Of a stretch of DNA of 64,000 nt, positions 4,253-51,898 are shown in pieces. The notes beneath the pieces are model-generated. The model was not told where the DNA came from, did not search any database, and was given only the letters and a program-made list of their open reading frames with translations. Both the position numbers and the translations under genes were made by a program. Numbering within the stretch: the first letter of the stretch is position 1; each line of letters opens with the position of its first letter. This stretch comes from Nitrospiraceae bacterium (GTDB lineage: Bacteria > Nitrospirota > Nitrospiria > Nitrospirales > Nitrospiraceae): positions 1 to 64,000 of the forward strand of contig JBFWWG010000004.1 in the NCBI GenBank assembly GCA_050246315.1. The letters are read 5' to 3'.

Positions 4253-4927
4253 ATGACCGAGTCACCGTCCGTCTCGCCGCCTACTCCGTCCCGGCTGCCC
4301 GTCCTCCTGTCCGGTTTCCTTCCCGGACTCGGCCAACTCACCCAGGGACGGCCCCGCCAGGCATTCTGGATCATCGCCATCACCGTACTGTTGTACTTGA
4401 TCGGCCGTGGGCTCGGGCGCGTGACCGATGTGAGCGCCGAGATATTCTACTTCATGTTGGTCGTGCTGCCCTGGTGGACCGTCCAAGCCTATGATGCCTC
4501 CTTCGCCCAAGGCCGCTTGTCCGCCGGAGGTCGCCATACCCTCATCCATTCGCTCAAACAGGCCTGGACCGAGGGGCACGACCTTCGCTACCTCGGCGCG
4601 CTCTTCTTTCTTTCCGCTTTCATGGACCTCTATATCATTCTGATGAATCCGGATTACGCGTTGCCGGTCTTCTGCTCGAAACCGACCGGGTGGCTTGGCT
4701 TGGCGGTCAAGGCCCAGTCCCCTCCCGCCCATCTGTTGATCGGATACGGCTTCGTACGGCTGCGCCGGTGGGCCCTCGTTTTGTACCTGGTCTACGCCGC
4801 CTACCAAGTCATTAGCGCCATGGTGAATTATGTGTGCTTCGGTTATGGGAGGATTCGGACGGTCATGTTCGTGACGCTGCTGATATTCACCGCATACATC
4901 CTCTGGAGACGGGAGCGATTCGCCTGA
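4253..4927 (+). CDS. Hypothetical integral membrane protein
   Basis: Several hydrophobic segments; LPGLGQL motif near the N-terminus. Confidence 0.7.
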   Translation: MTESPSVSPPTPSRLPVLLSGFLPGLGQLTQGRPRQAFWIIAITVLLYLIGRGLGRVTDVSAEIFYFMLVVLPWWTVQAYDASFAQGRLSAGGRHTLIHSLKQAWTEGHDLRYLGALFFLSAFMDLYIILMNPDYALPVFCSKPTGWLGLAVKAQSPPAHLLIGYGFVRLRRWALVLYLVYAAYQVISAMVNYVCFGYGRIRTVMFVTLLIFTAYILWRRERFA

Positions 4928-5011
4928 TCAGCCCATCGGCTCCCGCTTTGACAGCGTTTTGAAGGCTATGTTATTGGTGAAGAGTCCGGTCCGTCGTCAG
5001 GCGATCTCGGG

Positions 5012-5260
5012 ATGAACAACAGCGAGCCCATCTACGCGGTCCGATATCCGGACGGCTCCGTCAGTCTGTATGTGGACGAGGAGTATGCCCTGGATCAGGG
5101 CATCGACCCCTCCAAGCTGGTACGGGTCGATGTGCCGCGCGAATTGTACAGCACCGGAACCGTTCAGGATATCCGGGAATATGTCGCCAACCACATCGAA
5201 TCACTGACGACCGGTTCCGCCGATCACAAGGGGAAGCATGAGTTCCGCCATGACCATTGA
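5012..5260 (+). CDS. Small hypothetical protein
   Basis: ATG-start ORF with protein-like composition, overlapping the start of the next gene. Confidence 0.6.
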   Translation: MNNSEPIYAVRYPDGSVSLYVDEEYALDQGIDPSKLVRVDVPRELYSTGTVQDIREYVANHIESLTTGSADHKGKHEFRHDH

Positions 5261-6413
5261 CCTGATCGAATCGACGATCGCCACGCTCCCAGTCCAAGGA
5301 CGCATCATGCTGCGACTCCTGCTGCTGTCCTACTTCGATGTGACGAAGGAAGACTGCGACTTCATGGCCGCCGACCAGCCTGACTCCCGGATGTTATCGG
5401 GCAAGCGGTTACCGACCCCGGTTGTCCCCATCGACAGGATCAAGGCGGTCGTTGAGCGAGTCGCCCAATATCGGCGGTACGTCCGCATCAAACGCGAGCG
5501 GGCCTGGCTTCAGGTGGAAGGGCTTCAGAAGCTCATCCAACTGAACAGCGCCAGAGCGGCGGTGGCAGCCGACCTCTTGCGCACCCGTTTCGGAGTTCCC
5601 ACGGAGGGAGTGGAGGAGCTGAAGCGCGAGGCCAGAACCATGGTGCCCAAACCGGCGCAGCGTTCGCTCGACCAGCAGTGGGACCGGGATGAAATCGAGG
5701 AGGAAGCCTACCGAAAGTCACGGCTTTGCCTGGAATTCCAGTTCCTCATGCGCCGAATCGAGCGGGAACGCCGGCTACTGGACATTGCAGAACGAGAACT
5801 GCAGACCACTTCCCATGCTCCCCTGCAAGATCACGAGATCGGCCATATTTGGGGGATTCCCGCCGGCACGCTAATGGCGAGGAAGGTCAAATTTCTGAGC
5901 GCCTACGTCCAGGCCTTGCAACGTCGTCTGTCCGCGCCGGATGCGTTGCCGCTAACCCAGGCGCAAACGCCTATCGACCTCTGGAAGGAAACCTTCACGG
6001 TCTTGTCCAAGCAACCAGTCGAGCGATCCTTAGCCCAATACGACGGGTTGGAACAGACGGAAGACGCCTTTATGGTCAAGCTTCAGGCCTTCGTCGCCAG
6101 CCGTCTGCCCGAAGATGCTCAGACCAAGTTCTGGCTCTCGCTGGGGAAAGGGGGCAGTTCCAACGCAGTCCATGCCGAGGAAGGATGGTCCGTCTTCGGG
6201 TTGCAAAAGCTTTGCGCCGTTCTGACGGAAACCGATCAAAGCCCGGAGATGCTGGAGGAAGAATTGCTCGCCCTCGTCTCGCCGCAACGGAAGCTGGCGC
6301 CGGGCGAACTCCCTCCGCCGGCGACAGAAAAGGTCGAGATCAACGAGATGGCGCAACACGTCTTAAATAGCATGTTCGGCGAGGTTCGATCCTCGAGCGA
6401 ACCGACGCGTTGA
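5238..6413 (+). CDS. Hypothetical protein (helical/coiled-coil rich)
   Basis: 391-aa ORF with normal composition and no recognised motif. Confidence 0.7.
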   Translation: MSSAMTIDLIESTIATLPVQGRIMLRLLLLSYFDVTKEDCDFMAADQPDSRMLSGKRLPTPVVPIDRIKAVVERVAQYRRYVRIKRERAWLQVEGLQKLIQLNSARAAVAADLLRTRFGVPTEGVEELKREARTMVPKPAQRSLDQQWDRDEIEEEAYRKSRLCLEFQFLMRRIERERRLLDIAERELQTTSHAPLQDHEIGHIWGIPAGTLMARKVKFLSAYVQALQRRLSAPDALPLTQAQTPIDLWKETFTVLSKQPVERSLAQYDGLEQTEDAFMVKLQAFVASRLPEDAQTKFWLSLGKGGSSNAVHAEEGWSVFGLQKLCAVLTETDQSPEMLEEELLALVSPQRKLAPGELPPPATEKVEINEMAQHVLNSMFGEVRSSSEPTR

Positions 6414-6548
6414 GTTCCGGCAGATCCGCGAGATCTGCGCCGGCCGGTTCCCCACCGATCAGATCCGTTTCAGGGCCAACATTTTCTTTTTCACCAACCG
6501 TTTTCCTGGAGGAAGGTTCTGCGGTATAATCCCAACAAAGGATCAATC

Positions 6549-6962
6549 GTGACGCAACGATCGCCTTTGACGACCACCTCAATCCACGCGTGGGCAATCT
6601 GGTTTTTCCTCAGCCTATTCCTTCCGTTCTCGATCGCCGCCAACGTGCTCGAGATCGCGGAACTCGTCAGCCATCCCGAACAATACGACCACCAAACGGT
6701 AATCATCGCGGGCCAAGTCAGCAACTTCCAACTGGCCACCACCCGCGACGGCAAGGCCGCCTACGGCTTTCTGATCAAGGATCAAGCCGGGACAGTCAAG
6801 GTGGTGGCGCTGGGACAAGCGGAAATTCGAGAGGGCGATCTGGTCATCGTTGAAGGCATTTTCAGTCGCATGCGCCAGTCGGGCCGTGCAATCGTGTACA
6901 ACGAGATCAAGGCCATCGGCGTCCGCTCCATGAGTCGCCTGAATCCCGACTTGGTCGGCTGA
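6549..6962 (+). CDS. Exported OB-fold-like protein
   Basis: Signal/TM segment followed by a beta-rich VIIAGQV...FLIKD...GDLVIVEGIF pattern. Confidence 0.6.
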   Translation: MTQRSPLTTTSIHAWAIWFFLSLFLPFSIAANVLEIAELVSHPEQYDHQTVIIAGQVSNFQLATTRDGKAAYGFLIKDQAGTVKVVALGQAEIREGDLVIVEGIFSRMRQSGRAIVYNEIKAIGVRSMSRLNPDLVG

Positions 6963-7111
6963 CCGTCCTTCTCGTTCCGCTCCGTTCCCTTCAATTCTCA
7001 CGTCGTCACGACTCCCCAACCACCAACCGATTCGGTTTGAAATCCACCGCGTGGATCGGGCAAGCTGGATCTTGCTCAACTTCGGGACAATGACGCTCCC
7101 TGCAGGATTTC

Positions 7112-8938
7112 ATGGCCTCGCGAATTGAAGACTATGCGCTGATCGGCGACACCCATACCGCGGCCCTCGTTGGACGGGACGGCTCCATCGACTGGTATTG
7201 CGCACCCCGTTTTGATTCCGCTGCCTGTTTTGCCGCGCTGCTCGGCACCAAGGACAACGGGCGCTGGCTGCTTGCGCCCAAGGATGAGGTGCAGGTGGTC
7301 CGCCGCCGTTATCGCGAAGGGACGCTGATCCTGGAAACGGAGTACCGGACCGAGGGCGGGACGGCCACCGTCATCGATTGGATGCCGCCACATGACACAA
7401 CCATCGACCTGATCCGGTCGGTAGTCGGCATCAAGGGGCAGGTCCGTATGACCATGGAACTGATCATCCGCTTCGACTACGGATGGGTGGTCCCCTGGGT
7501 CAGAAGGCGGGATGGGCTTCTCGAAGCGCTTGCCGGTCCCGATGCGCTCGATTTGCGGACCGAGGTGAAACTCGAAGGGAAAGGATTTGCCACCGTCGCA
7601 GAGTTCACGGTGACGGAGGGGCAGGAGGTCCCGTTCGTGTTGACCTGGCGGCCCTCGCATGGCAGTCCGCCTGAGCCGATCGATGTCCGCCGGGCCTTGG
7701 CCGAAACCGAAATCTGGTGGCGCAACTGGTCGGACCGATGCACCTACCAAGGCCCCTGGCGAGAGGCCGTCCTCCGATCCTTGATCACGCTCAAAGCGTT
7801 GACCTATGCGCCGACCGGCGGGATCGTGGCCGCCGTGACCACCTCGCTGCCGGAACATATCGGCGGAGTTCGCAATTGGGATTACCGGTACTGCTGGGTG
7901 CGGGATGCGACGTTCACGCTCTATGCCCTGTTGTTGGCCGGCTATCACGAGGAAGCGCTTGCCTGGCGGGAATGGCTCCTGCGGGCGACAGCCGGCAATC
8001 CGTCCGAATTGCAGATCATGTACGGATTATCGGGCGAGCGCCGGCTTCTCGAATACAGTCTGGATTGGCTTCCAGGGTACGAGGGTTCGGTTCCCGTCAG
8101 GGTCGGTAATGCCGCGTCGCATCAGTTTCAGCTCGACGTCTACGGCGAGATCCTGGACACCGCGCACATCGCGAGGCGCGCCGGCATCGAACCGAATGAG
8201 ATGGCCTGGGAGTTTCAGCAGCACCTGCTGGAATTTCTCGAATCGGCCTGGGAGCGGCCCGATGAAGGCATCTGGGAAGTACGCGGGCCGCGGCGGCATT
8301 TTACACATTCCAAGATCATGGCCTGGGTCGGCGTCGACCGCGGGATCAAGGCCATCGAGCGATTCGGACGGTCCGGTCCGCTGGAGCGATGGAAAGCCCT
8401 GCGCCAGGCCATTCACGAGCAAGTCTGCCGCGAAGGCTATGATCCGCAGCGCGGTGCCTTCATGCAGTATTATGGCGCGAAGCAAGTGGATGCCAGCGCG
8501 CTGATGATTCCCTTGGTCGGCTTCCTTCCCGCCACCGACCCGCGCGTCGTCGGCACGGTGAAGAAAATCGAGCAGGACCTCGTAGAACATGGATTCGTCA
8601 AACGCTACGAGCCCCAGCCCTCGGTCGACGGCTTGCCGCCCGGAGAAGGCGCATTTCTGACCTGCACGTTTTGGCTGGCAGACAACCTGGCTCTGATGGG
8701 TCAACAAGAACGTGCTTGCGAGCTCTTCACCCGCCTCTTGGACATTCGGAACGACGTCGGCCTCCTGGCCGAAGAATACGATCTCGTCTCCCGCCGCCAA
8801 CTGGGAAACTTTCCGCAGGCTCTTTCTCATATCTCGCTCATCAATACCGCCTACAACCTGACGCGTTGCGCCGAGAAACCAGCCGAAGATCGACCGGCGG
8901 CGGACAGACCCGCCCAACAACATCTGAGAGCGGAGTAA
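7112..8938 (+). CDS. Glycoside hydrolase family 15 (trehalase/glucoamylase-like)
   Basis: IEDYALIGD, RNWDYRYCWVRD, QLDVYGE, GIWEVRG, LLAEEYD and GNFPQALSH motifs. Confidence 0.93.
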   Translation: MASRIEDYALIGDTHTAALVGRDGSIDWYCAPRFDSAACFAALLGTKDNGRWLLAPKDEVQVVRRRYREGTLILETEYRTEGGTATVIDWMPPHDTTIDLIRSVVGIKGQVRMTMELIIRFDYGWVVPWVRRRDGLLEALAGPDALDLRTEVKLEGKGFATVAEFTVTEGQEVPFVLTWRPSHGSPPEPIDVRRALAETEIWWRNWSDRCTYQGPWREAVLRSLITLKALTYAPTGGIVAAVTTSLPEHIGGVRNWDYRYCWVRDATFTLYALLLAGYHEEALAWREWLLRATAGNPSELQIMYGLSGERRLLEYSLDWLPGYEGSVPVRVGNAASHQFQLDVYGEILDTAHIARRAGIEPNEMAWEFQQHLLEFLESAWERPDEGIWEVRGPRRHFTHSKIMAWVGVDRGIKAIERFGRSGPLERWKALRQAIHEQVCREGYDPQRGAFMQYYGAKQVDASALMIPLVGFLPATDPRVVGTVKKIEQDLVEHGFVKRYEPQPSVDGLPPGEGAFLTCTFWLADNLALMGQQERACELFTRLLDIRNDVGLLAEEYDLVSRRQLGNFPQALSHISLINTAYNLTRCAEKPAEDRPAADRPAQQHLRAE

Positions 8939-18422: not shown

Positions 18423-19444
18423 GGCCGTCCTTTTCCTGTTTTCTGGTCAACGATAGCTTCGGCGATCCCGGGCTGTACGTGGATATCGCCTGGGCCAGAC
18501 GCGCCTTCCTGTTCGACCTCGGCCAGAATGTTGCGCTCGGCTCCACACGGCTGCTGCGCGCCCAGGATATTTTCATCTCGCACACGCACATGGATCATTT
18601 CATCGGCTTCGACCAGGTGTTGCGGGTAGCCTTGGGACGCGGCAAGACCCTGCGCCTGTACGGTCCACCCGGCCTATCCGCGAACGTGGACGGGAAGCTG
18701 CGCGGCTATACCTGGAACCTGGTGGACGGCTATCCGTTGACGATCGAAGTCCGCGAGTTTGACAAGGACCGGATGCAGGTGACGACGTTTCATGCCGCCG
18801 AAGCCTTTACGATGCGACGCGCGCCCACACAGTCGCCAGTCCCGCTGACCGGTGATGGCGCCTTCCCTGTGTTGGAAGATCCCATGTTCACCGTCAAGGC
18901 CGTAGCTTTGAACCATCGCATTCCCTCCTTCGCCTATGCCCTCGAAGAGCAGTTCCACGTCAACATTTTAAGGGAGCGGTTACACGCGGCCGGCCTGCCG
19001 GTCGGGTCCTGGCTCAAGGATGTGAAACAGTACCTCTGGCAGGGAAAACCGGATGGGTTCCGCTTCACCGCCACGCTGTATTTCGAACACCGCCGAGAAG
19101 AGCGGGAATTTGTGCTCGGCGAAATCCGAGAGCGGTTCGTACAGATTTCCCGCGGCCAAAAGATCGCCTATGTCGTAGACACTCGTTACGACGAGGAGAA
19201 CGAAACCAAAATTGTCGCGCTCGCCCGCGGAGCGGATGCCTTCTACTGCGAGGCTCCCTATCTTGAGACCGATGCAAACAAGGCGCGGGACCGTTATCAT
19301 CTGACGGCACGACAGGCCGGACTGATGGCGCGAAAGGCGCAGGTGCAGAAGCTGGTGGTCTTTCACTTTTCTCCGCGTTACATGGGGCAAGGGGAATTCA
19401 TCGAGCGAGAAGCGATGGGTGCATTTCGGAACGAGGAGGGTTGA
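18419..19444 (+). CDS. Ribonuclease Z-like metallo-beta-lactamase fold protein
   Basis: SHTHMDH, KIAYVVDT, HLTARQAG and FHFSPRY motifs; ATGA overlap with the upstream gene. Confidence 0.85.
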   Translation: MRPSFSCFLVNDSFGDPGLYVDIAWARRAFLFDLGQNVALGSTRLLRAQDIFISHTHMDHFIGFDQVLRVALGRGKTLRLYGPPGLSANVDGKLRGYTWNLVDGYPLTIEVREFDKDRMQVTTFHAAEAFTMRRAPTQSPVPLTGDGAFPVLEDPMFTVKAVALNHRIPSFAYALEEQFHVNILRERLHAAGLPVGSWLKDVKQYLWQGKPDGFRFTATLYFEHRREEREFVLGEIRERFVQISRGQKIAYVVDTRYDEENETKIVALARGADAFYCEAPYLETDANKARDRYHLTARQAGLMARKAQVQKLVVFHFSPRYMGQGEFIEREAMGAFRNEEG

Positions 19445-19783
19445 ATGAGTGAGGTTGCGAAGTATGCGTTGTATTTTCTGATCGGGGGCTTGGTGGTGAG
19501 TGTGTCGAGTTACCTCGGTGCCAAGGGAGAAGGGTTTCTCGCCGCCTTCGCCAGCACCTTCCCGGCGATGACCGGTGTGACCTTCATGCTGATTCACCTC
19601 AACGGAAGTGCGGGTTCGACCTTAATCTATGCCAAGCACCTTCTCTGGTTCGTCCCCCCCTGGCTGGCCTATGTCGGCTTCATGATCTTCGGCCTCAATC
19701 GGTTCGGATTCTGGCCGACCATGATCGGCTCGCTCACCCTCTACATGAGCTGCGTGGGGCTCTTACGGCTGGCGCTGCGGTGA
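19445..19783 (+). CDS. Small 4-TM membrane protein (DUF3147/GlpM-like)
   Basis: YFLIGGLVV...GFLAAFASTFP pattern; abuts the upstream stop. Confidence 0.65.
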   Translation: MSEVAKYALYFLIGGLVVSVSSYLGAKGEGFLAAFASTFPAMTGVTFMLIHLNGSAGSTLIYAKHLLWFVPPWLAYVGFMIFGLNRFGFWPTMIGSLTLYMSCVGLLRLALR

Positions 19784-19808
19784 GAGCCGATGCATCGGCT
19801 CCCATGCT

Positions 19809-19830
19809 TTGACAGCATTCTGTACAATAT
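19809..19830 (+). promoter_or_regulatory. Probable TA promoter/operator
   Basis: TTGACA at 19809 and palindrome TGTACA at 19821-19826, the core seen in Phd/YefM operators, just upstream of the antitoxin gene. Confidence 0.35.
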
Positions 19831-19866
19831 TGAGACTGGCTCCATCGGAACCGTGAGGAGTAAGCC

Positions 19867-20148
19867 ATGGCCATCACATCCAAAGACATCATCTCACTGA
19901 GCCACGCCAGAGCGAAGCTAACGGAGCTGTGCGAGGAAGTTCGCGCCAAGGGCACTGAGAAGATCATCACCAAGAACGGGGGAAGTTGCGCCGCGCTCAT
20001 TGATGCGGAGCGGCTCGACTACTACCACCGCCTGGAGCGCGAACGAATCCATGTGGGGTTGTTGCAGGAAGCCATCAAGGGCATGACCGACCTGAAAACC
20101 AGGAAGAGACTCAGCCTGGCCCAACTCAAGAAGCGGCATGGCCGGTAA
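19867..20148 (+). CDS. Phd/YefM-family antitoxin
   Basis: IISLSHARAKLTELCEEV...KIITKNG..AALI; SD GAGGAG. Confidence 0.9.
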   Translation: MAITSKDIISLSHARAKLTELCEEVRAKGTEKIITKNGGSCAALIDAERLDYYHRLERERIHVGLLQEAIKGMTDLKTRKRLSLAQLKKRHGR

Positions 20149-20309
20149 GCGTCCGGTCTTCACCGAACACTTCTCTGCGAATATCACGGTCATCGAGGTT
20201 TTTCTCGGTCCCAGCGGCCGCCGCCGCTTCGCTCGCCTGTTGGATCACCTGTTCGACGACGTCATTCCGACTCTCTGCCGCTTCCCTCGATCGGGCCGTT
20301 CGTTCCTAG

Positions 20310-20433
20310 TGTTGCGTCCCAGAAGTTCGTTCGTGGTGAGCCTGTCGAACCATGAACGGAACTCCTTGAAAGTGGGCGCCCTTCGACACGCTCAGTGCGA
20401 ACGGATAATTACCGGAACTTACGGGACACAACA
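20310..20433. mobile_element. MITE, end type D, with internal REP-like palindromes
   Basis: TIR TGTTGCGTCCCAGAAGTTC / GAACTTACGGGACACAACA; CTAG on both sides (20306-9 and 20434-7). Confidence 0.8.
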
Positions 20434-20437
20434 CTAG

Positions 20438-20783
20438 CAGGATGTTGAAAAAGTCCGCCAGCTTTGTTGGGGCACCCAATGCTGAATTTTCATGCTGCAG
20501 TGGGTCTGACGCGAAGAGGCCAACCCTGTAGGATTTTCTCCAGCGGCGTCAATGGGGAAAGGCTACGCCTGGTGAGCCGCTGGTACACACGAAGTGTGGT
20601 ATGTACCTCTTCGCCTCTTCACGTGCTGCGGCCGTGCCCGTGGAGAGGCGCGCTTCGGCGCGCCGGGGTTGGACGGGTGAGAAAGCCGGCCTTTTTGACC
20701 ATCCTGTACGTGGTTCTGAAATCATCCGTGATCCCTCGCTGTGCCGGCTCTCACGGGTACTCGAAGTGTTTTTCAACAGCCTG
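20438..20783. mobile_element. MITE, end type A (CAGGATGTTGAAAAA ... TTTTTCAACAGCCTG)
   Basis: 15-bp TIR with 1 mismatch and CTAG duplication. Extra internal right end TTTTTGACCATCCTG at ~20692-20706. Related to the copy at 51917. Confidence 0.88.
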
Positions 20784-21044
20784 CTAGACAGGGCGATACA
20801 TTCCACGAAAGCCCAGGCCATGGCTCACGATCTGAGCCGGCTGCTCCAACCAGGCGACAATCTGCGGGAATACATCATGGACGACTATCTGATTCTGTAT
20901 CTCGTCCGCCGCCACGAACTGGTCTTCCTATCAATGAAGCACCATCGGCAACTCTCATTCGACCTCGCGCAATTCTGGCTGGAGGAATAGGCGGATCAAC
21001 CTATCGCGCCGGTCCTCCAACCGATCATGATAGGGTCGCTCATC

Positions 21045-21308
21045 ATGAACCGCACGATCGCTCTCACAAAAGCTCGAATGAAGTTTTCCACGCTGGTGGA
21101 CGGAGCCGATCGCTTGTCTGAACGGTTCGTCGTCACCAAGCACGGTCTGCCCAAAGCCGTCATTATGAGTGTTGAGGAATTCGAGAGCCGGCTAGAAACC
21201 TTGAAACTCCTGTCCAATCCAACGGCGGTCAAGGCGCTGGAGCGAGGGCTCAAGCAAGCCAAGGCGGGCAAGGTTCGCTCGTTTGAGCGTGTCTTTGGCG
21301 AGCCTTAG
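21045..21308 (+). CDS. Phd/YefM-family antitoxin (second)
   Basis: IALTKARMKFSTLVD...FVVTKHGLPKAVIMSVEEFE..LETL.LLSNP. Confidence 0.9.
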   Translation: MNRTIALTKARMKFSTLVDGADRLSERFVVTKHGLPKAVIMSVEEFESRLETLKLLSNPTAVKALERGLKQAKAGKVRSFERVFGEP

Positions 21309-21370
21309 TGAGGCAAGTTCGGCTAACGCCGCAGGGCGTCAAGGACGTGGCCCTATTTGATGAGGTACTC
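21308..21370 (+). pseudogene. N-terminal remnant of a RelE-like toxin
   Basis: GTG overlaps the antitoxin stop; MRQVRLTPQGVKDV resembles a RelE start, then toxin character is lost. Confidence 0.5.
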
Positions 21371-21624
21371 CACGGAGAATCAAGAACGCCCTCCGCCAAC
21401 TTAGGGCCTGCCCTCTCAAAGCCTGATCGCCAGCATCCTACACAAATACGTCAGCCGCTCTGCTCCACACACGAACTAACCAGTCCTACTTTTGAGACGT
21501 ACCGATAGGTCTGCGCCCAGGCTTGATAGCGGTCGGCCGCGGCATGGACCCCCTTGCCGCGGCGGGAGGCATCGGAAGGCTCATGACGGATTGTGTGAAC
21601 CACCGTGTTTGTATTCAAGCCTAA

Positions 21625-21661
21625 CTCCCCTCTCCTTGAAAAGGAGAGGGCGCGGGTGAGG
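21625..21661. repeat. REP-like palindrome CCCCTCTCC...GGAGAGGG..GGGTGAGG
   Basis: Hairpin; inverted partner at 21835 and relatives at 51560-51633. Confidence 0.75.
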
Positions 21662-21830
21662 ATTCTGCAACAGCACCTCACGATCCGAAAAACGAATGAC
21701 GCTCAGTCCCAAAGACTGAAGATAGGCGTCCCGCCGTTCATCCCTTTTCCGGCCTACAAGGGCATAGTGCTGCCCGCCGTCAAGCTCGATCACCAGTTTC
21801 GCTTGGACCCTCCTTCCAAGGCTGCATGGA
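21662..21830 (-). pseudogene. DUF559 (Vsr-like endonuclease) C-terminal fragment
   Basis: KLVIELDGGQH...RDERRDAYLQSLGLSVIRFSDREVL; the N-terminal half is missing. Confidence 0.8.
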
Positions 21831-21834
21831 ACAA

Positions 21835-21867
21835 CCCTCACCCTTCCCTCTCCCTGTTAGGGAGAGG
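21835..21867. repeat. REP-like palindrome (inverted copy)
   Basis: CCCTCACCCTTCCCTCTCCCTGTTAGGGAGAGG. Confidence 0.75.
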
Positions 21868-21914
21868 ATCTTCCAACGTGGTGTGAGCCATCCGTTGGTT
21901 CAGCATTCCCCCGG

Positions 21915-21951
21915 ACGGCCCTCGCCCGATTCGAGATCGGGCGAGGGCCGT
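21915..21951. terminator. Perfect 16-bp-stem hairpin downstream of the TIR-STAND-FGE gene (terminator and/or DGR cis hairpin)
   Basis: ACGGCCCTCGCCCGAT-TCGAG-ATCGGGCGAGGGCCGT. Confidence 0.65.
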
Positions 21952-21974
21952 GCTTTTCGGAAGAGGTATTTCGG

Positions 21975-22008
21975 AAGGGTAAAGGGTAAAAGGACAAAGG
22001 ATAAAGGG
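21975..22008 (-). repeat. Five degenerate CC(C)TTT(A/G) pyrimidine units directly after the stop codon
   Basis: Minus strand reads TAA-CCCTTTA-TCCTTTG-TCCTTTTA-CCCTTTA-CCCTT. Confidence 0.6.
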
Positions 22009-24618
22009 TTATTCGTTCATGTCCTGGACGAGACGGAAACCAATGTCGTTGAACCGGTTATCCGGGTTGAGCCCGTTCCGGTCCGAAGCACGCAGGTACC
22101 CCGGTCCGTTGCCCCAGGCCCCGCCCCGGATCACACGTGTTCTGCATTCGGCGCTATCCGCTTCTGGCCAGGCCGATCCATCGGTCGGCGCTCCTGTGTA
22201 GTTCTCATGCCAGCAATCTTCCACCCATTCTACGACATTCCCGCTCATGTCGTAGAGGCCGAGACCATTCGGCTTTTTACTTCCAACCGGCTCCGTACTC
22301 CGTGCCTCGTATACCGCATAATCTTCTAGATCCTTCTCATCGGATGTGCCGGCCCAGACTTCTTCCTTCCCTCCACTCCGCGCCGCATATTCCCATTTCG
22401 ATTCTGTTGGAAGGCCGTAGTGCTTACCGGTCGCTTGGGACAGCCACTTGGCATAACCCTTCCCATCGTCCCATGAGACGTTGATCACGGGTCGTTGACC
22501 ACGCCCCCACCCATTATCATCTGGCCGTTTCGCGCTCGTCAGGTCCACATACCGATCATACTCCTCGAACGTGACCTCATATCTTGCCATCGCAAAGGGC
22601 TTGATCGTGACCATACGGACCGGCTGCTCACTTTCATCCGAACGACTACCTTGTTCATAGGTTCCACCATGAATCTTGACCATTGCTGGCTCAGGCACCT
22701 GGATAAGGTGCAACCGCGCCAGCACGATCGATCCGGCATATTGAACGGTCACGCCTTCCTTCGCCAACCAGGCGACCGGCCCACCAAGCAGCACAAGGAC
22801 GAGGCTGGCGGCTATGGCGAAGGACCAGCGCCGGAGATGCTTCTGGCGTTTGCTCGCTATCACGAACTGACGTTCACGAGACGAGAGATCGTCCGGCTTT
22901 TTCTTCAGCCAATCCAACGCCTCGGTCAACGGCAGCCCACGGAGCAAGAGATCGGAGCCCCGCTTGCTCTCTTCATACTGCTCGATCGAGGCGCGCAAGC
23001 GCTGCTGCCAGGCAAGAAATCGGCGGTCCGCGTCCACCCACCCTTTGAGCCGTTCCCAGTGACGGATCAACGCCTCGTGCGACACCTCGATGGTTTCCTC
23101 CGTACTGCCGGCCAGCCGGGAGGTCACCAACAGCCGTTCGTCGGCGAGCGCCCTCGCGACCCCTTGCCCCTCCTCTCCCACTTCACCGAATGTTGCGCGA
23201 CGTCTGGTATCTGCCTCACCTTCTCCAGGTCGCACGAGACGGAGGAAGATCTGCCGTGCTCTCCGTTGATCCCCTTCGCTGAGGTTCGTGTACAGAGCTT
23301 CTGCTTTCTTGGCGATCGCTCCCTCCAATTGTCCCATGGCCTTGTAGGCCTCATGATGGAGTTGTCCGCCACGGCAGTCCTCCCACAAGCGCCGCAACAC
23401 GAATTCCAGCAGGGGCAAATGCCCCGGTTCATCGCCGGCTTGCTCGACAATCAGATCAACGAGGCCTGCTTCGAACCTCAACCCCACTTGCCGCGCCGGC
23501 TCTTCGATGGCCAGACGCAATTCTTCCGGCGTCATCGGCCCGAGATTCACCTGGGCGCCCTGCACACGGTCGGACAGCGGCCGATAGGCGGTAATGGCGC
23601 GACCGAAGAAGTCTCCTCGCAAGGTGAGCACGACGCTGAACTGTACCTTCGCCGTGGCCTCCAGGATGTTGTCGATGAAGCAACGTCTGACGCCTTCCTC
23701 TTTACAGAGCGTGAACAGTTCCTCCCACTGATCGGCAATCAGTAGTAGCCGATCCGTCCCTGGTTGCTTGGCGAGCACTCGGGCGACGAGATCGCGGAGG
23801 GCGAGCGTCCGACTCAGCAGCGCCTCGGCCAGCTTGTTGATTTCGATCAAGCGGCTGGTCTCGCTCATCTCCGGTTCGAGAAACGGCATGAACACCGCCG
23901 CGAGGGCATGGACTGGGCGATCGGTCGGCACGATCGTGGCGAACTCCCATGGGCGATCACGATCCCTGCGCAGCGCCGGCACCAAGCCCGCCCGCACGAC
24001 CGACGACTTCCCACTGCCCGAGGCCCCGACCACCGCCACGAGGCTGTGCTGCTGCACCGCTCGAACGAGCTGGCTGATGGTCGTCTCCCGCCCGAAAAAG
24101 AAGGGCGCGTCTTCCTCTCGGAAATACAGGAGGCCTCGATAGGGACAAATGGCGGCGAGCGTCTCCCGAACCGTGTCTTGCGCGTCGGGGCCAGGCGGCT
24201 CCCCGTGGATGGCCCTGACGAGGGTGTTGAGCAGGATCGGGTCATCGCCACGGGTGCGGAAATCGACCCAGGTGTTTTGGCTCAGAAACCCGAGCGGCGG
24301 TTCTGACCCAGGCAGCAAGACGGGAATGACGGGAAAGAGCAGTCCTCCGCGCTCAGCCGCCGCCTGACGCTCCAGCGCGAGATACTGCTCCCGCTGCTGC
24401 CACGGCCCCATTTCTCCTTGACCGATGCAGACCGCGACCGCTCGACAGTGGCCAAGGGTCGCCTCCAATGCCTTCGGCCAAGATTGCCCCGGCGTGAGAT
24501 ACCACCGGTCGAGAAAGACCGTGAGGTTCCGCTCGCACAACGACCGTGCGAGTGCTTCCACCTGCGCATGGTCGCGCCAGTGGTAACTCAGGAACACATC
24601 GAAACGATCGGGAGGCAT
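22009..24618 (-). CDS. TIR + STAND (nSTAND1-like) NTPase + TM + FGE-sulfatase/C-type lectin domain protein
   Basis: TIR: FDVFLSYH...GPWQQRE. NTPase: CPYRGLLYF, GASGSGKSS, LLIADQWEELF, HEALIRHW. One TM segment. CLec: RPVINVSW, LPTE..WEYAAR, GLYDMSGNV.EW, RGGAW, IGFRL. Confidence 0.92.
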   Translation of the reverse strand: MPPDRFDVFLSYHWRDHAQVEALARSLCERNLTVFLDRWYLTPGQSWPKALEATLGHCRAVAVCIGQGEMGPWQQREQYLALERQAAAERGGLLFPVIPVLLPGSEPPLGFLSQNTWVDFRTRGDDPILLNTLVRAIHGEPPGPDAQDTVRETLAAICPYRGLLYFREEDAPFFFGRETTISQLVRAVQQHSLVAVVGASGSGKSSVVRAGLVPALRRDRDRPWEFATIVPTDRPVHALAAVFMPFLEPEMSETSRLIEINKLAEALLSRTLALRDLVARVLAKQPGTDRLLLIADQWEELFTLCKEEGVRRCFIDNILEATAKVQFSVVLTLRGDFFGRAITAYRPLSDRVQGAQVNLGPMTPEELRLAIEEPARQVGLRFEAGLVDLIVEQAGDEPGHLPLLEFVLRRLWEDCRGGQLHHEAYKAMGQLEGAIAKKAEALYTNLSEGDQRRARQIFLRLVRPGEGEADTRRRATFGEVGEEGQGVARALADERLLVTSRLAGSTEETIEVSHEALIRHWERLKGWVDADRRFLAWQQRLRASIEQYEESKRGSDLLLRGLPLTEALDWLKKKPDDLSSRERQFVIASKRQKHLRRWSFAIAASLVLVLLGGPVAWLAKEGVTVQYAGSIVLARLHLIQVPEPAMVKIHGGTYEQGSRSDESEQPVRMVTIKPFAMARYEVTFEEYDRYVDLTSAKRPDDNGWGRGQRPVINVSWDDGKGYAKWLSQATGKHYGLPTESKWEYAARSGGKEEVWAGTSDEKDLEDYAVYEARSTEPVGSKKPNGLGLYDMSGNVVEWVEDCWHENYTGAPTDGSAWPEADSAECRTRVIRGGAWGNGPGYLRASDRNGLNPDNRFNDIGFRLVQDMNE

Positions 24619-24805
24619 GTGGGCTCTTCTCGACCCGAGAGGCTGAACGTCGCAGCCGACTCACCCCGTGGGCGGTACCATACGGGGCGTCGCCCGGATG
24701 GCGTGGATTGTACGCTTTCGTCCGATTAAGACAAGGTGGGGAGGGTGTTTGAGCCCAAGCCGCGATCCAAGAAATGGTCCTATTTTCGTGTGAAAGGTAT
24801 GAGGG

Positions 24806-25972
24806 CTAGCGCAGCGAATTGAGGTACGCGATGAGGTCGGAGATCTCGCGGTCGGAGAGGTGGCGGGTGCCGGTCATGGTCGAGCCCCCGATGCCGTCCT
24901 TGATCGCACGGGCGAGTTCCAGATCGGTTCTGATTTTGAGCGCAAACCAATCGCGCAAATTCGGCGGCACGCGGCGTGGGGAGGGTCCGGCAAAGGGCGT
25001 GATGATGGGTGGGATGTAGCCCGGTGCGACACCGAATAATATCTCTTGCCTCACATCCGTAAACATGTCGGCATCGCGACCGTGGCAGGTGTTGCAAGCG
25101 CCCTTGCCGTTGAACAGGGCCCGTCCTTCTGCAACTGAGTCTCTGATCAATGGAATCACGGGAAACGCCAGCGCCTGCTGCACCGGCTCGGACGGTGAAG
25201 ATACGGACCCTGCCGGCACTGCTGCTCTTGGTTCACCTGGGGACTTCGCCGGGTCTGCCGGCTTCGGCGGCTCAGCGAGCTTGGCCAATCCGCTCGATTC
25301 AGCCGGCTCGGACGGTCGTGGCTGCTGTTCCTGATCGGGCTTGCCGGTCACAGTCCAACTGATCAAGGTCTCGTCCGGGCTGAACGTGATCGTCAGTCCC
25401 GTGTCCGCATAGCTCCAGATCTCTTCGCTCCCGCGTTTCTTGATCGTCTTAGGCTTGCCGAATCGCTGCGCTATCTCATCGCGGCTCATGCCGGCGTGCG
25501 GCGTCAAATCCTGAACGACGGGCGGAGGGGCTGCCGGCAGGGCATCCGAGGGCCGCGCTTCTTCATTTCCCTTGGCAGACTTGTCGCTCGGGCGCTCCGG
25601 AATCGGCGCACGTTTCGGCAGGCTTGCCACCTGGGCTTGATTGACCCGCAGCAAGCGCCAGGCCGAGATCGTGTCTTTGGGACAACCGGACGCCTCCGGC
25701 TCCTCGTAAATCATTGCGGTCTCGATCAACAGACGGGACGTGTCTCGCCCCTGGGCATAGGCGTTCAGTTCCTTCTTGCCGGCGTCGAACGCCCGGAGCC
25801 TGGCATCTTCGGCTGTCCGCGCGCAGGACGCCACTCCGACAAAGTACACCTCGTCCCCGAACCGGAACATCGCCTGTTCGGTCCAAAATGGTCGAAGAAG
25901 AGAGCTGTCGGCCCAGGCAGGCTGGTCCGTGATTGGCAACAGGATCAACAGGAACAGAATGGAAGCCGGCAT
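24806..25972 (-). CDS. Exported multidomain protein with C-terminal monoheme cytochrome c
   Basis: Signal peptide, GMSRDEIAQRFGKP (SmpA/OmlA-like), Pro-rich linkers, CNTCH and a distal Met (GSTM). Confidence 0.8.
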   Translation of the reverse strand: MPASILFLLILLPITDQPAWADSSLLRPFWTEQAMFRFGDEVYFVGVASCARTAEDARLRAFDAGKKELNAYAQGRDTSRLLIETAMIYEEPEASGCPKDTISAWRLLRVNQAQVASLPKRAPIPERPSDKSAKGNEEARPSDALPAAPPPVVQDLTPHAGMSRDEIAQRFGKPKTIKKRGSEEIWSYADTGLTITFSPDETLISWTVTGKPDQEQQPRPSEPAESSGLAKLAEPPKPADPAKSPGEPRAAVPAGSVSSPSEPVQQALAFPVIPLIRDSVAEGRALFNGKGACNTCHGRDADMFTDVRQEILFGVAPGYIPPIITPFAGPSPRRVPPNLRDWFALKIRTDLELARAIKDGIGGSTMTGTRHLSDREISDLIAYLNSLR

Positions 25973-26141
25973 GAGCGAGCCTCCCCACCAACTCACAGGT
26001 GAGAGAAGGAAGGTACCAAGTTCATTCTACTCGGGTCCGACCCGCAGCTCCTAGGCCTCGCAGTCTGGACGAAGCCCGATTGCTCTGGCCCAAGCCCCTT
26101 GCTACGATACTGAGGTTTTGCCCTGTTTCAAGAAGGACCCG

Positions 26142-51305: not shown

Positions 51306-51898
51306 GGCTTCAGCACCTGATCCGTGATCGAATGCTGGGGATCGCCGAAGAGGGCGAACATATCCTCTTGCTTGTCGGTCTTGTGCCCGGCCAGCGTTTC
51401 GATGATGGCTTTGGTGGAGAGCCGTTCGTGGATGAACAGCGGCAAGGTCGGGACATCGAACGAGAGCCGTTCGGCCTTGCCTGCCCAATTGAGAAACGGC
51501 TTACTGAGGGCTTTCAGCTTGCGTAACGTCTCGTCCGCTTCGCGGAGAAGTTTGGCTGACTCACCCTCACCCTCGCCCTCTCCCTTGAAGGGAGAGGGGA
51601 CAGGTGGGACACTCTCTCCCGCAGAGGGAGAGGAGGCCATCGAGGCTCGCAGATCGGCAATCTTGGTTTCCAGGCTGGCGATCAGTGCCTCACCCTGCTC
51701 GCGGGCGGGATTCGTGGCGTCCCAATCGAGCGCGGGCGAGAGCGACGAATCATAGCGGTAGGTCTTCGGCGGTTTCTTCTTTTTGAACTGCGCCTGCGTG
51801 CCGACCTCCGGCCGCATGAGGCTCTTGGCGTCGGGGTGCTGATAGGGCGCCGTCGCTTTGTTCTTAACAGCAGGCTTGCGTGGGGAACGTTTCGCCAC
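51302..51898 (-). pseudogene. N-terminal fragment of the type III-like DNA methyltransferase (mod)
   Basis: RPEVGTQAQF, YRYDSSLSPALDWD and PFLNWAGKAER.SFDVPTLPLFIHERLST. Stops before any DPPY/FxGxG motif. Confidence 0.8.
51560..51633. repeat. Pair of CCCTCTCCC...GGGAGAGG REP-like palindromes inserted in frame in the mod fragment
   Basis: Same family as the repeats at 21625/21835; translated as SSPSAGESVPPVPSPFKGEGEGEGES. Confidence 0.75.

Follow-up and report, generated by a model that had tools for sequence, protein, structure and literature searches.

The subject of this analysis is a gene on the reverse strand of a 64,000-nt stretch of Nitrospiraceae DNA, hereafter the window, which corresponds to positions 1-64000 of contig C4 in an assembly of 30 contigs (genome G000). 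Our reading, in which we have considerable confidence, is that this gene is a remote target of a diversity-generating retroelement (DGR), served in trans by a cassette on another contig (C5), and that it encodes a protein that can be modelled as a transmembrane, NLR-like receptor. The DGR part of this reading is supported by the statistics of the variable repeat (VR) and its template repeat (TR), by the cassette itself, and by the alleles present in natural populations. An earlier note, made from the sequence of the window, had already proposed a remote DGR target. This proposal is borne out by a TR on C5 that equals the VR at all non-adenine positions and stands behind intact avd and reverse transcriptase (RT) genes, and by adenine-specific alleles in metagenomes. 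The genome therefore has the RT and the TR, and populations have the adenine-specific variation, whose absence the note had named as the outcome that would speak against it.

22009..24618, reverse strand: target gene, an 869-aa open reading frame comprising TIR, nSTAND1, one transmembrane (TM) helix and an FGE-type C-lectin domain (open reading frame, Pfam and hydropathy)
22024..22137, reverse strand: VR, 114 nt, codons 828-865, whose cognate TR is C5:68725-68838 (forward strand)

Template, cassettes and population alleles

When the 3' end of the gene was compared with the genome by BLASTN, paralogous gene ends were found, together with a 114-nt match of 87.7% at C5 68725-68838. This is the non-coding copy, differing at template adenines and located beside a DGR-type RT, for which a genome search had been suggested. 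Placed in register, VR and TR differ at 14 positions, all of them template adenines (14 of 32, against 0 of the 82 non-adenine positions; Fisher P 1.5e-9). A genome-wide scan that ignored template adenines found the window VR to be the sole partner of the C5 TR with 0 non-adenine mismatches, the next-best partners being a gene end on C18 (4 mismatches) and the gene end adjacent to the C5 cassette (8 mismatches). Most of the differences hit codon position 1 or 2 of an AAC codon. The TR has 32 adenines distributed over 19 codons, 11 of which are AAC, and its only codon convertible to a stop is AAA; we compute that 18 amino-acid positions can be diversified from it, giving about 10^17.7 possible proteins. 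The NNC codons that fill the conserved scaffold of the VR had been read as the product of A-to-N mutagenesis of an AAC-rich template, and the C5 repeat, which is AAC-rich and non-coding past the RT stop, indeed accounts for them codon by codon. The variable stretch first placed at 22020-22137 is real, with a lower coordinate that has to be moved, the exact range being 22024-22137.

The genome contains two RVT_1 genes, on C5 and C3, each within a complete cassette of target, Avd, RT and TR. On C5, these are a TIR-nSTAND1-TM-FGE target of 962 aa, an Avd of 118 aa (NF033474, 95.4 bits for a cut-off of 80; also PF22296), an RT of 360 aa and the TR, whose start overlaps the last codons of the RT gene. 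The RT (C5:67649-68731; RVT_1 E 2.3e-20) has the motifs VGNLTSQ and YVDD, and its best solved relative, above group II intron RTs, is 8ub7 (E 3.3e-48), which we take to be the Bordetella phage bRT. The C3 cassette has the same order, and lies behind a SIR2_2 gene and an nSTAND1-TM-FGE target. Its template (C3:244937-244824) shows 16 adenine and 0 non-adenine mismatches to the adjacent target, and 17 and 0, respectively, to a remote TIR-FGE gene on C14. At least three gene tips in this genome are written by DGRs, two of them from afar. The approximately 190 nt located 3' of each TR are conserved and have a strong predicted fold; Rfam gave no family at E <= 0.1 in window positions 19000-26000, and none at gathering score in either cassette locus.

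The target beside the C5 cassette (C5:64279-67167; positions 4279-7167 of locus L003) has 8 non-adenine mismatches to its own TR, of which 3 lie where its VR ends on the 3' side, and the C5 cassette seems to serve the distant window gene better than its own neighbour. A third, degenerate template-like repeat followed by the conserved spacer is present at C14:40478-40591, with no detectable RT beside it, and represents a further decayed cassette.

Is the VR variable in nature? At least half of the words of 21850-23400 are held by 20 of the 24 listed public runs (8 studies), most of them at a fraction of 0.86-0.92. Assembled contigs, rather than reads, were compared for one run from each of four studies (sludge bioreactor, aquatic, activated sludge and wastewater). 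In run X3, a single 3016-nt contig (record 9) spans 21850-23400 with 17 differences, all of them inside the VR, and in run X16 a 1998-nt contig spanning 21971-23400 also has 17 differences. Runs X4 (record 23) and X8 (record 31) have 1615-nt contigs that span 22114-23400 with 0 differences, and in each of them the VR comes on two further contigs of 122 nt (22022-22143), one with 17 and one with 16 differences. Taken together, 19 of 19 variable places in the VR lie on template adenines (hypergeometric 1.7e-13) and 18 of the 19 at codon positions 1-2, so that the adenine-specific population variation proposed for the NNC codons was found in metagenome contigs. Natural populations therefore contain at least three VR alleles, the window's and two further ones, in a gene that is otherwise identical. 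Several variable places return to A, in line with a replacement of the whole stretch by newly made cDNA. There is one extra contig in X4 (191 nt) and one in X8, each with 7 differences on 22078-22137 and a jump over 22009-22077, possibly from a fourth allele, possibly from a paralogue. Other differences outside the VR come from short contigs lying only partly on the stretch and mostly less than 95% alike, which are paralogues or other organisms.

Architecture and possible function of the receptor

The following domains are recognised in the protein:

24250..24597, reverse strand: TIR domain (TIR_2, PF13676), residues 8-123, Pfam E 1.5e-20
22957..24144, reverse strand: nSTAND1 NTPase (PF20703), residues 159-554, with the P-loop GASGSGKS, Pfam E 1.7e-120
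22759..22830, reverse strand: single predicted TM helix, residues ~597-620, Kyte-Doolittle window scan, maximum 2.21
22027..22692, reverse strand: FGE-sulfatase domain (PF03781) of C-lectin fold, residues 643-864, Pfam E 8e-49

The STAND core with its P-loop sits between an N-terminal TIR and a C-terminal lectin, which is the layout of NLR-like STAND proteins, and Pfam and the Kyte-Doolittle scan agree with the architecture first described, in which TIR and STAND are joined through one TM helix to an FGE-type C-lectin. Under the positive-inside rule, the basic flank of a TM helix lies on the cytoplasmic side; the basic stretch of the window protein, KRQKHLRR, is N-terminal to the TM segment, and the C5 and C3 paralogues likewise have one TM segment with basic residues on its N-terminal side. 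From the order of the domains and from hydropathy, we infer that the lectin domain is periplasmic and that the TIR and STAND domains are cytoplasmic. The TIR domain aligns with that of the solved bacterial protein 3h16 (E 4.5e-5), WQQRE (residues 73-77) falling on WPQKE, so that W-x-x-x-E is kept and Glu77 is aligned. The glutamate of this motif, presumably the catalytic residue of TIR domains, is thus retained, as had been noticed from the sequence.

For the lectin domain, an AF2 model of residues 637-869 built on a 25-sequence alignment reached a pLDDT of 91.5, and its Foldseek matches include PvdO (5hha, TMq 0.87), FGE (2q17) and the DGR variable protein TvpA (2y3c, E 1.2e-18, TMq 0.78). 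In the comparison of sequences, one solved relative alone ranks above TvpA (E 9.7e-24). The NCBIfam models for enzymes of the FGE superfamily stay far under their cut-offs on the window protein (PvdO 156 bits for 500, EgtB 59 for 360), and the domain is therefore an FGE-fold module and not a recognised enzyme. Its VR segment RVIRGG...IGFRLVQ is free of cysteine; the equivalent segment is where we take the catalytic cysteine pair of FGE to be located. Treponema denticola TvpA shares with the window protein the FGE-type C-lectin fold and a C-terminal VR, but it is a surface protein of the lipoprotein type and is not known to carry a TIR or STAND module. The DGR that diversifies it has known remote targets (PMC5758913).

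A sequence of events can be proposed. On the established DGR mechanism, the C5 RT and Avd would copy the TR RNA with adenine-specific errors, and the mutated cDNA would replace the VR, recoding the ligand-binding face of the C-lectin domain. Ligand binding in the periplasm would then drive oligomerisation of the STAND module inside the cell, and this would activate the TIR domain, by NAD+ cleavage or nucleotide signalling, the outcome being probably a defence or conflict response. The antiphage STAND proteins of the Avs/bNACHT type have sensors made of TPR-type repeats, whereas the sensor of the window protein is a DGR-diversified C-lectin, predicted to lie beyond a membrane helix, and no PADLOC system model covers the protein. 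They resemble it in having an N-terminal effector (TIR), a central STAND NTPase and a C-terminal sensor (PMC10907252).

The closest published systems are the 'clade 5D' DGRs of Dore et al. 2024 (PMC10907252). These diversify nSTAND1/NACHT-C-lectin proteins, some of them headed by a TIR or a peptidase domain; a TR that matches at all non-adenine sites acts in trans on incomplete loci, diversity is seen in nature, and some of the sensors are predicted to be periplasmic. The window gene resembles the clade 5D targets of Thiohalocapsa PB-PSB1 and other multicellular bacteria in its nSTAND1/NACHT module and C-terminal FGE-type C-lectin VR, in the presence of several cassettes and incomplete loci in one genome, and in natural diversification (PMC10907252). 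It differs in its host, a Nitrospira; in being a single chain whose TM helix separates TIR and STAND from the lectin; and in that the cassette-adjacent C5 target has drifted (8 non-adenine mismatches) whereas the remote window target is perfect. DGR-diversified STAND-lectin sensors, some with TIR, and targets served in trans are thus already published (PMC10907252), and the tract found behind the stop codon (see below) is the one feature that may be new.

The Bordetella phage BPP-1 DGR (Mtd, bAvd, bRT) is similar in the RT match to 8ub7, the Avd family, the adenine-specific transfer from TR to VR and an inverted repeat after the VR (PMC3240598). It differs in that the order here is target-avd-RT-TR, the system is cellular and not of a phage, and a CTTT tract separates stop and hairpin. 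The cyanobacterial variable proteins (Vallota-Eastman et al. 2020, PMC7517822) are similar in being C-lectin paralogues with grafted heads (kinase, peptidase, TIR-like), many of them remote targets and some with TM segments or signal peptides; they are mostly kinase-type and predicted to be cytosolic, and a TR identity of >=50% sufficed there for calling a remote target, which is less strict than the 0 non-adenine mismatches found here. DGRs have also been tied to conflict systems (Kaur et al. 2020, PMC7159879). As for Nitrospira, our literature searches on DGRs in this genus, which did not extend to supplements, returned no paper on such targets; the published text of Roux et al. 2021 does not name it, and in DiGReF 2012 Nitrospirae appears only in a table.

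Seven paralogues of the genome end in an FGE domain: TIR-nSTAND1 (the window gene and the C5 target), nSTAND1 behind a SIR2 gene (C3), TIR only (two genes on C14), DUF4062-nSTAND1 (C18) and a trypsin-like peptidase (C1). The SIR2 protein of the C3 locus resembles ThsA (E 2e-23). That the paralogues swap such conflict-type N-terminal modules (TIR, ThsA-like SIR2, trypsin-like peptidase, DUF4062), that the TIR keeps the Glu aligned with W-x-x-x-E, and that STAND-C-lectin targets of this kind have been interpreted in print as antigen sensors (PMC10907252) all speak against a scenario in which the targeting is real but the protein is not an immune sensor. Here, the gene would encode a periplasmic receptor for cell-cell or kin recognition, or for environmental signalling, in Nitrospira aggregates, its TIR domain serving in signalling or as a scaffold. 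The cyanobacterial multidomain C-lectin targets are read as regulatory or signalling proteins (PMC7517822), PADLOC has no system-level match for the window protein, and beside the gene no phage or defence genes were identified except toxin-antitoxin fragments; we nevertheless find this scenario unlikely, while regarding it as the most serious of the alternatives. The earlier note imagined a periplasmic sensor, hypervariable and coupled to an NLR-like TIR response, and this picture fits the domain order, the topology as predicted and the way in which related systems have been interpreted (PMC10907252). Template, enzyme and population evidence document that a Nitrospira from sludge, wastewater and landfill-type habitats keeps a small receptor-like repertoire of seven paralogues (TIR, SIR2, trypsin, DUF4062 and STAND modules) and two cassettes. 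The idea of a 'hypermutated antigen sensor', known from pink-berry sulfur bacteria and from cyanobacteria, is thereby extended to key nitrifiers, and the single-chain, membrane-spanning TIR-STAND-lectin protein offers a test case for outside-in signalling.

The decayed local cassette

On the 3' side of the window gene one meets, in this order, a CTTT tract, a hairpin, a DUF559-type fragment and an RT remnant:

21975..22008, reverse strand: CTTT-rich tract of CCTTT/CCCTTT repeats, directly after the stop (read from the sequence; 3' end approximate)
21915..21951, no strand assigned: perfect 16-bp inverted repeat with a 5-nt loop, CTCGA, a hairpin or cruciform candidate (z -4.5 for the DNA fold, a value reached by 0 of 200 shuffles)
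21581..21890, reverse strand: inserted DUF559-type fragment (PF04480, E 5.4e-11), in the position that avd has in intact cassettes, with a small palindrome at 21847-21867
21481..21576, reverse strand: DGR RT remnant of 32 aa, matching residues 105-136 of the C5 RT with 75% identity (tblastn E 1e-7)

No RT, Avd or template repeat had been noticed in the window; for the RT this has to be amended in view of the 32-aa remnant at 21481-21576. The window gene's own cassette has decayed to this RT fragment, and the gene is now served in trans. Its distance to the end of contig C4 is 22 kb, and between the TR and the nearer end of C5 there are 68.7 kb, so that gene and TR are at least about 90 kb apart, or on separate molecules. 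Remote DGR targets more than 100 kb away have been described (Wu et al. 2018, PMC5758913). The same DUF559-type element is found behind the orphan target of C18 (C18:~30690); at both places it is preceded by a small palindrome and a G-rich stretch, and a third copy of the palindrome lies at window positions ~51577-51597. It looks like a small mobile insertion that helped destroy both cassettes.

The RT remnant leads to a second scenario, in which the VR is a relic: it would have been diversified earlier by the neighbouring, now decayed cassette, the C5 DGR would be inactive on it today, and the alleles would be old strain differences. Besides the remnant adjoining the gene, decayed cassettes are common (Avd fragments behind the C14b and C18 gene ends and, as the sole trace, at L011, L021, L024 and L042; genome G003, see below), and identical alleles recur across studies. 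However, the remnant is as diverged from the C5 RT (75% identity) as the C3 RT is (79%), and the C3 TR already differs from the C5 TR at 11-12 non-adenine positions; a local template so diverged is not expected to leave 0 of 82 non-adenine mismatches to the C5 TR, and the perfect fit is therefore best explained by overwriting from C5. Moreover, the genes that carry the alleles show 0 differences over ~1.3 kb and share the decayed DNA on their 3' side: the X3 allele contig has it to position 21850, which argues for VR change after the local cassette was lost. We thus consider the relic scenario quite improbable. As to the idea that the NNC pattern is GC-rich codon bias on a conserved FGE scaffold and the similarity to C5 plain paralogy, C-ending codons are common in a GC-rich genome (a caveat of the earlier note) and FGE-ended paralogues number seven, but paralogy predicts mismatches at all bases (true paralogues have 8-24 non-adenine mismatches to the C5 TR, the window VR 0), the C5 repeat is AAC-rich outside coding sequence, and population variation is restricted to template adenines, so that this idea is already refuted.

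How do relatives fare? Full-length relatives with 65-82% identity are found in many Nitrospira metagenome-assembled genomes, and more distant ones in Methylococcaceae and deltaproteobacteria. Taken by itself, the lectin domain has matches in many phyla, the Thiohalocapsa PB-PSB1 chromosome among them (L071, 45% identity). A protein alignment of relatives (L012, whose reading frame has 3 stops, was left out) shows a conserved scaffold with hypervariable positions in between. We examined 82 candidate gene-end segments from 71 loci for template-like copies, by an ungapped search in one register of 6-kb flanks, so that loci without a match are not shown to lack a template. A copy with at most 5 non-adenine mismatches was found for 12 segments (11 loci), and with at most 1 for 8. 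The Nitrospira orthologues L009, L015, L023 and L038 have target, Avd, RT and TR in cis, with 0-1 non-adenine mismatches. An RT match of at least 340 aa lies behind Avd in 13 of 75 loci. A related RT (E <= 1e-30) is present in 4 of 4 genomes of the genus, and at the family level in 16 of 201 sampled genomes (9 of 39 genera), including G000 and G009.

Several points weigh against remote targeting of an NLR-like receptor. Assembled contigs drop rare variants, so that the alleles give neither a diversification rate nor frequencies. The two non-window alleles recur, one in 4 of 4 studies and one in 2, which means at least two replacement events and not continuous hypermutation. In the closed genome G003, of the same genus, the single DGR looks dead, with 25 and 36 non-adenine mismatches to its TR. 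PADLOC gives only weak TIR-level matches for the window protein. The topology is a prediction from hydropathy, and TIR activity, STAND activation and any link to phages or other invaders are putative. Finally, the hairpin is missing after the C14 target although that target matches the C3 TR perfectly, and behind the window gene it departs from the phage type: its stem has 16 bp, its loop is CTCGA and it lies 72 nt from the VR end, whereas phage DGR hairpins have a 7-10 bp stem, a 4-nt GRNA loop and a distance of 4-34 bp from the VR (PMC3240598). The hairpin that the earlier note counted among the DGR hallmarks is thus present, but is not of the published phage type.

The orthologue of G003 (L084/L085, 58% identity) is split into two frames, with a break near residue 590; the CTTT tract is still there, together with a hairpin that is shorter and an Avd fragment of 39 aa. 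We considered this genome as an active example of the distance between target and DGR, its sole RT being 1.54 Mb away, and rejected it: the TR next to that RT is degenerate, its second half being VR-like, and matches neither VR.

Downstream tract, hairpin and neighbouring genes

Sequence and fold confirm that the stop codon is followed at once by CCTTT(A/G) repeats and then by a perfect 16-bp hairpin. A strict CTTT pattern occurs 4 times in the genome, always after DGR-type targets (C3, C4, C5 and C14a), which agrees with the expectation that paralogues would share the tract. It also follows the stop in Nitrospira orthologues and in distant phyla: the carriers, all behind FGE/C-lectin targets, are Nitrospira, Nitrosomonas, Burkholderiales, Methylococcaceae, deltaproteobacteria, Thiosymbion, Thiohalocapsa and Acidobacteria-like genomes (loci L009-L071; L003, L004, L005). 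At least 2 CTTT within 40 nt of the stop are present at 37 of 73 gene ends, and at least 3 at 27 of 73, against 0 of 73 in control windows located 200 nt further on. The 16-bp stem, for its part, is the same after the C5 and C3 targets, degenerate after those of C14b and C18, and absent after C14a. The hairpin sequence is common only to paralogues of the same genome, other lineages having different GC hairpins, or none of at least 8 perfect pairs.

What might the tract do? We know of no described role for a post-stop CTTT tract, and a literature search on DGRs, variable repeats and pyrimidines together gave no paper, which does not show that the tract is undescribed. We tentatively propose, as a possibility more doubtful than probable, that it is an undescribed cis element that marks gene ends for RT and Avd, so that orphan receptors stay diversifiable in trans, or else that it controls avd-RT expression. 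The C14 target, which keeps the tract without the hairpin and matches its template perfectly, hints that the tract, and not the hairpin, is the conserved requirement. If functional, the tract would matter for engineering DGRs onto chosen genes. Two other ideas were dropped. Pairing of the tract with the ~190-nt spacer 3' of the TRs would involve a complementarity of only 4-5 nt; and the hairpin is not called as an intrinsic terminator by a consensus scan, nor does a T-run follow it on the gene strand.

Among the neighbours, the gene upstream on the same strand (24806-25996, reverse strand) codes for 396 aa, with a cytochrome c domain at the C-terminus (E ~3e-6) and a long linker rich in Pro and Ala, and we saw no link between this gene and the receptor. 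On the other side, two antitoxin genes of the Phd/YefM type (E 3.5e-8 and 1.2e-16) lie at window positions 19867-21508 (forward strand), and behind each of them come short frames to which Pfam assigns nothing; they have the look of toxin-antitoxin modules in decay, located between the RT remnant and the next genes.

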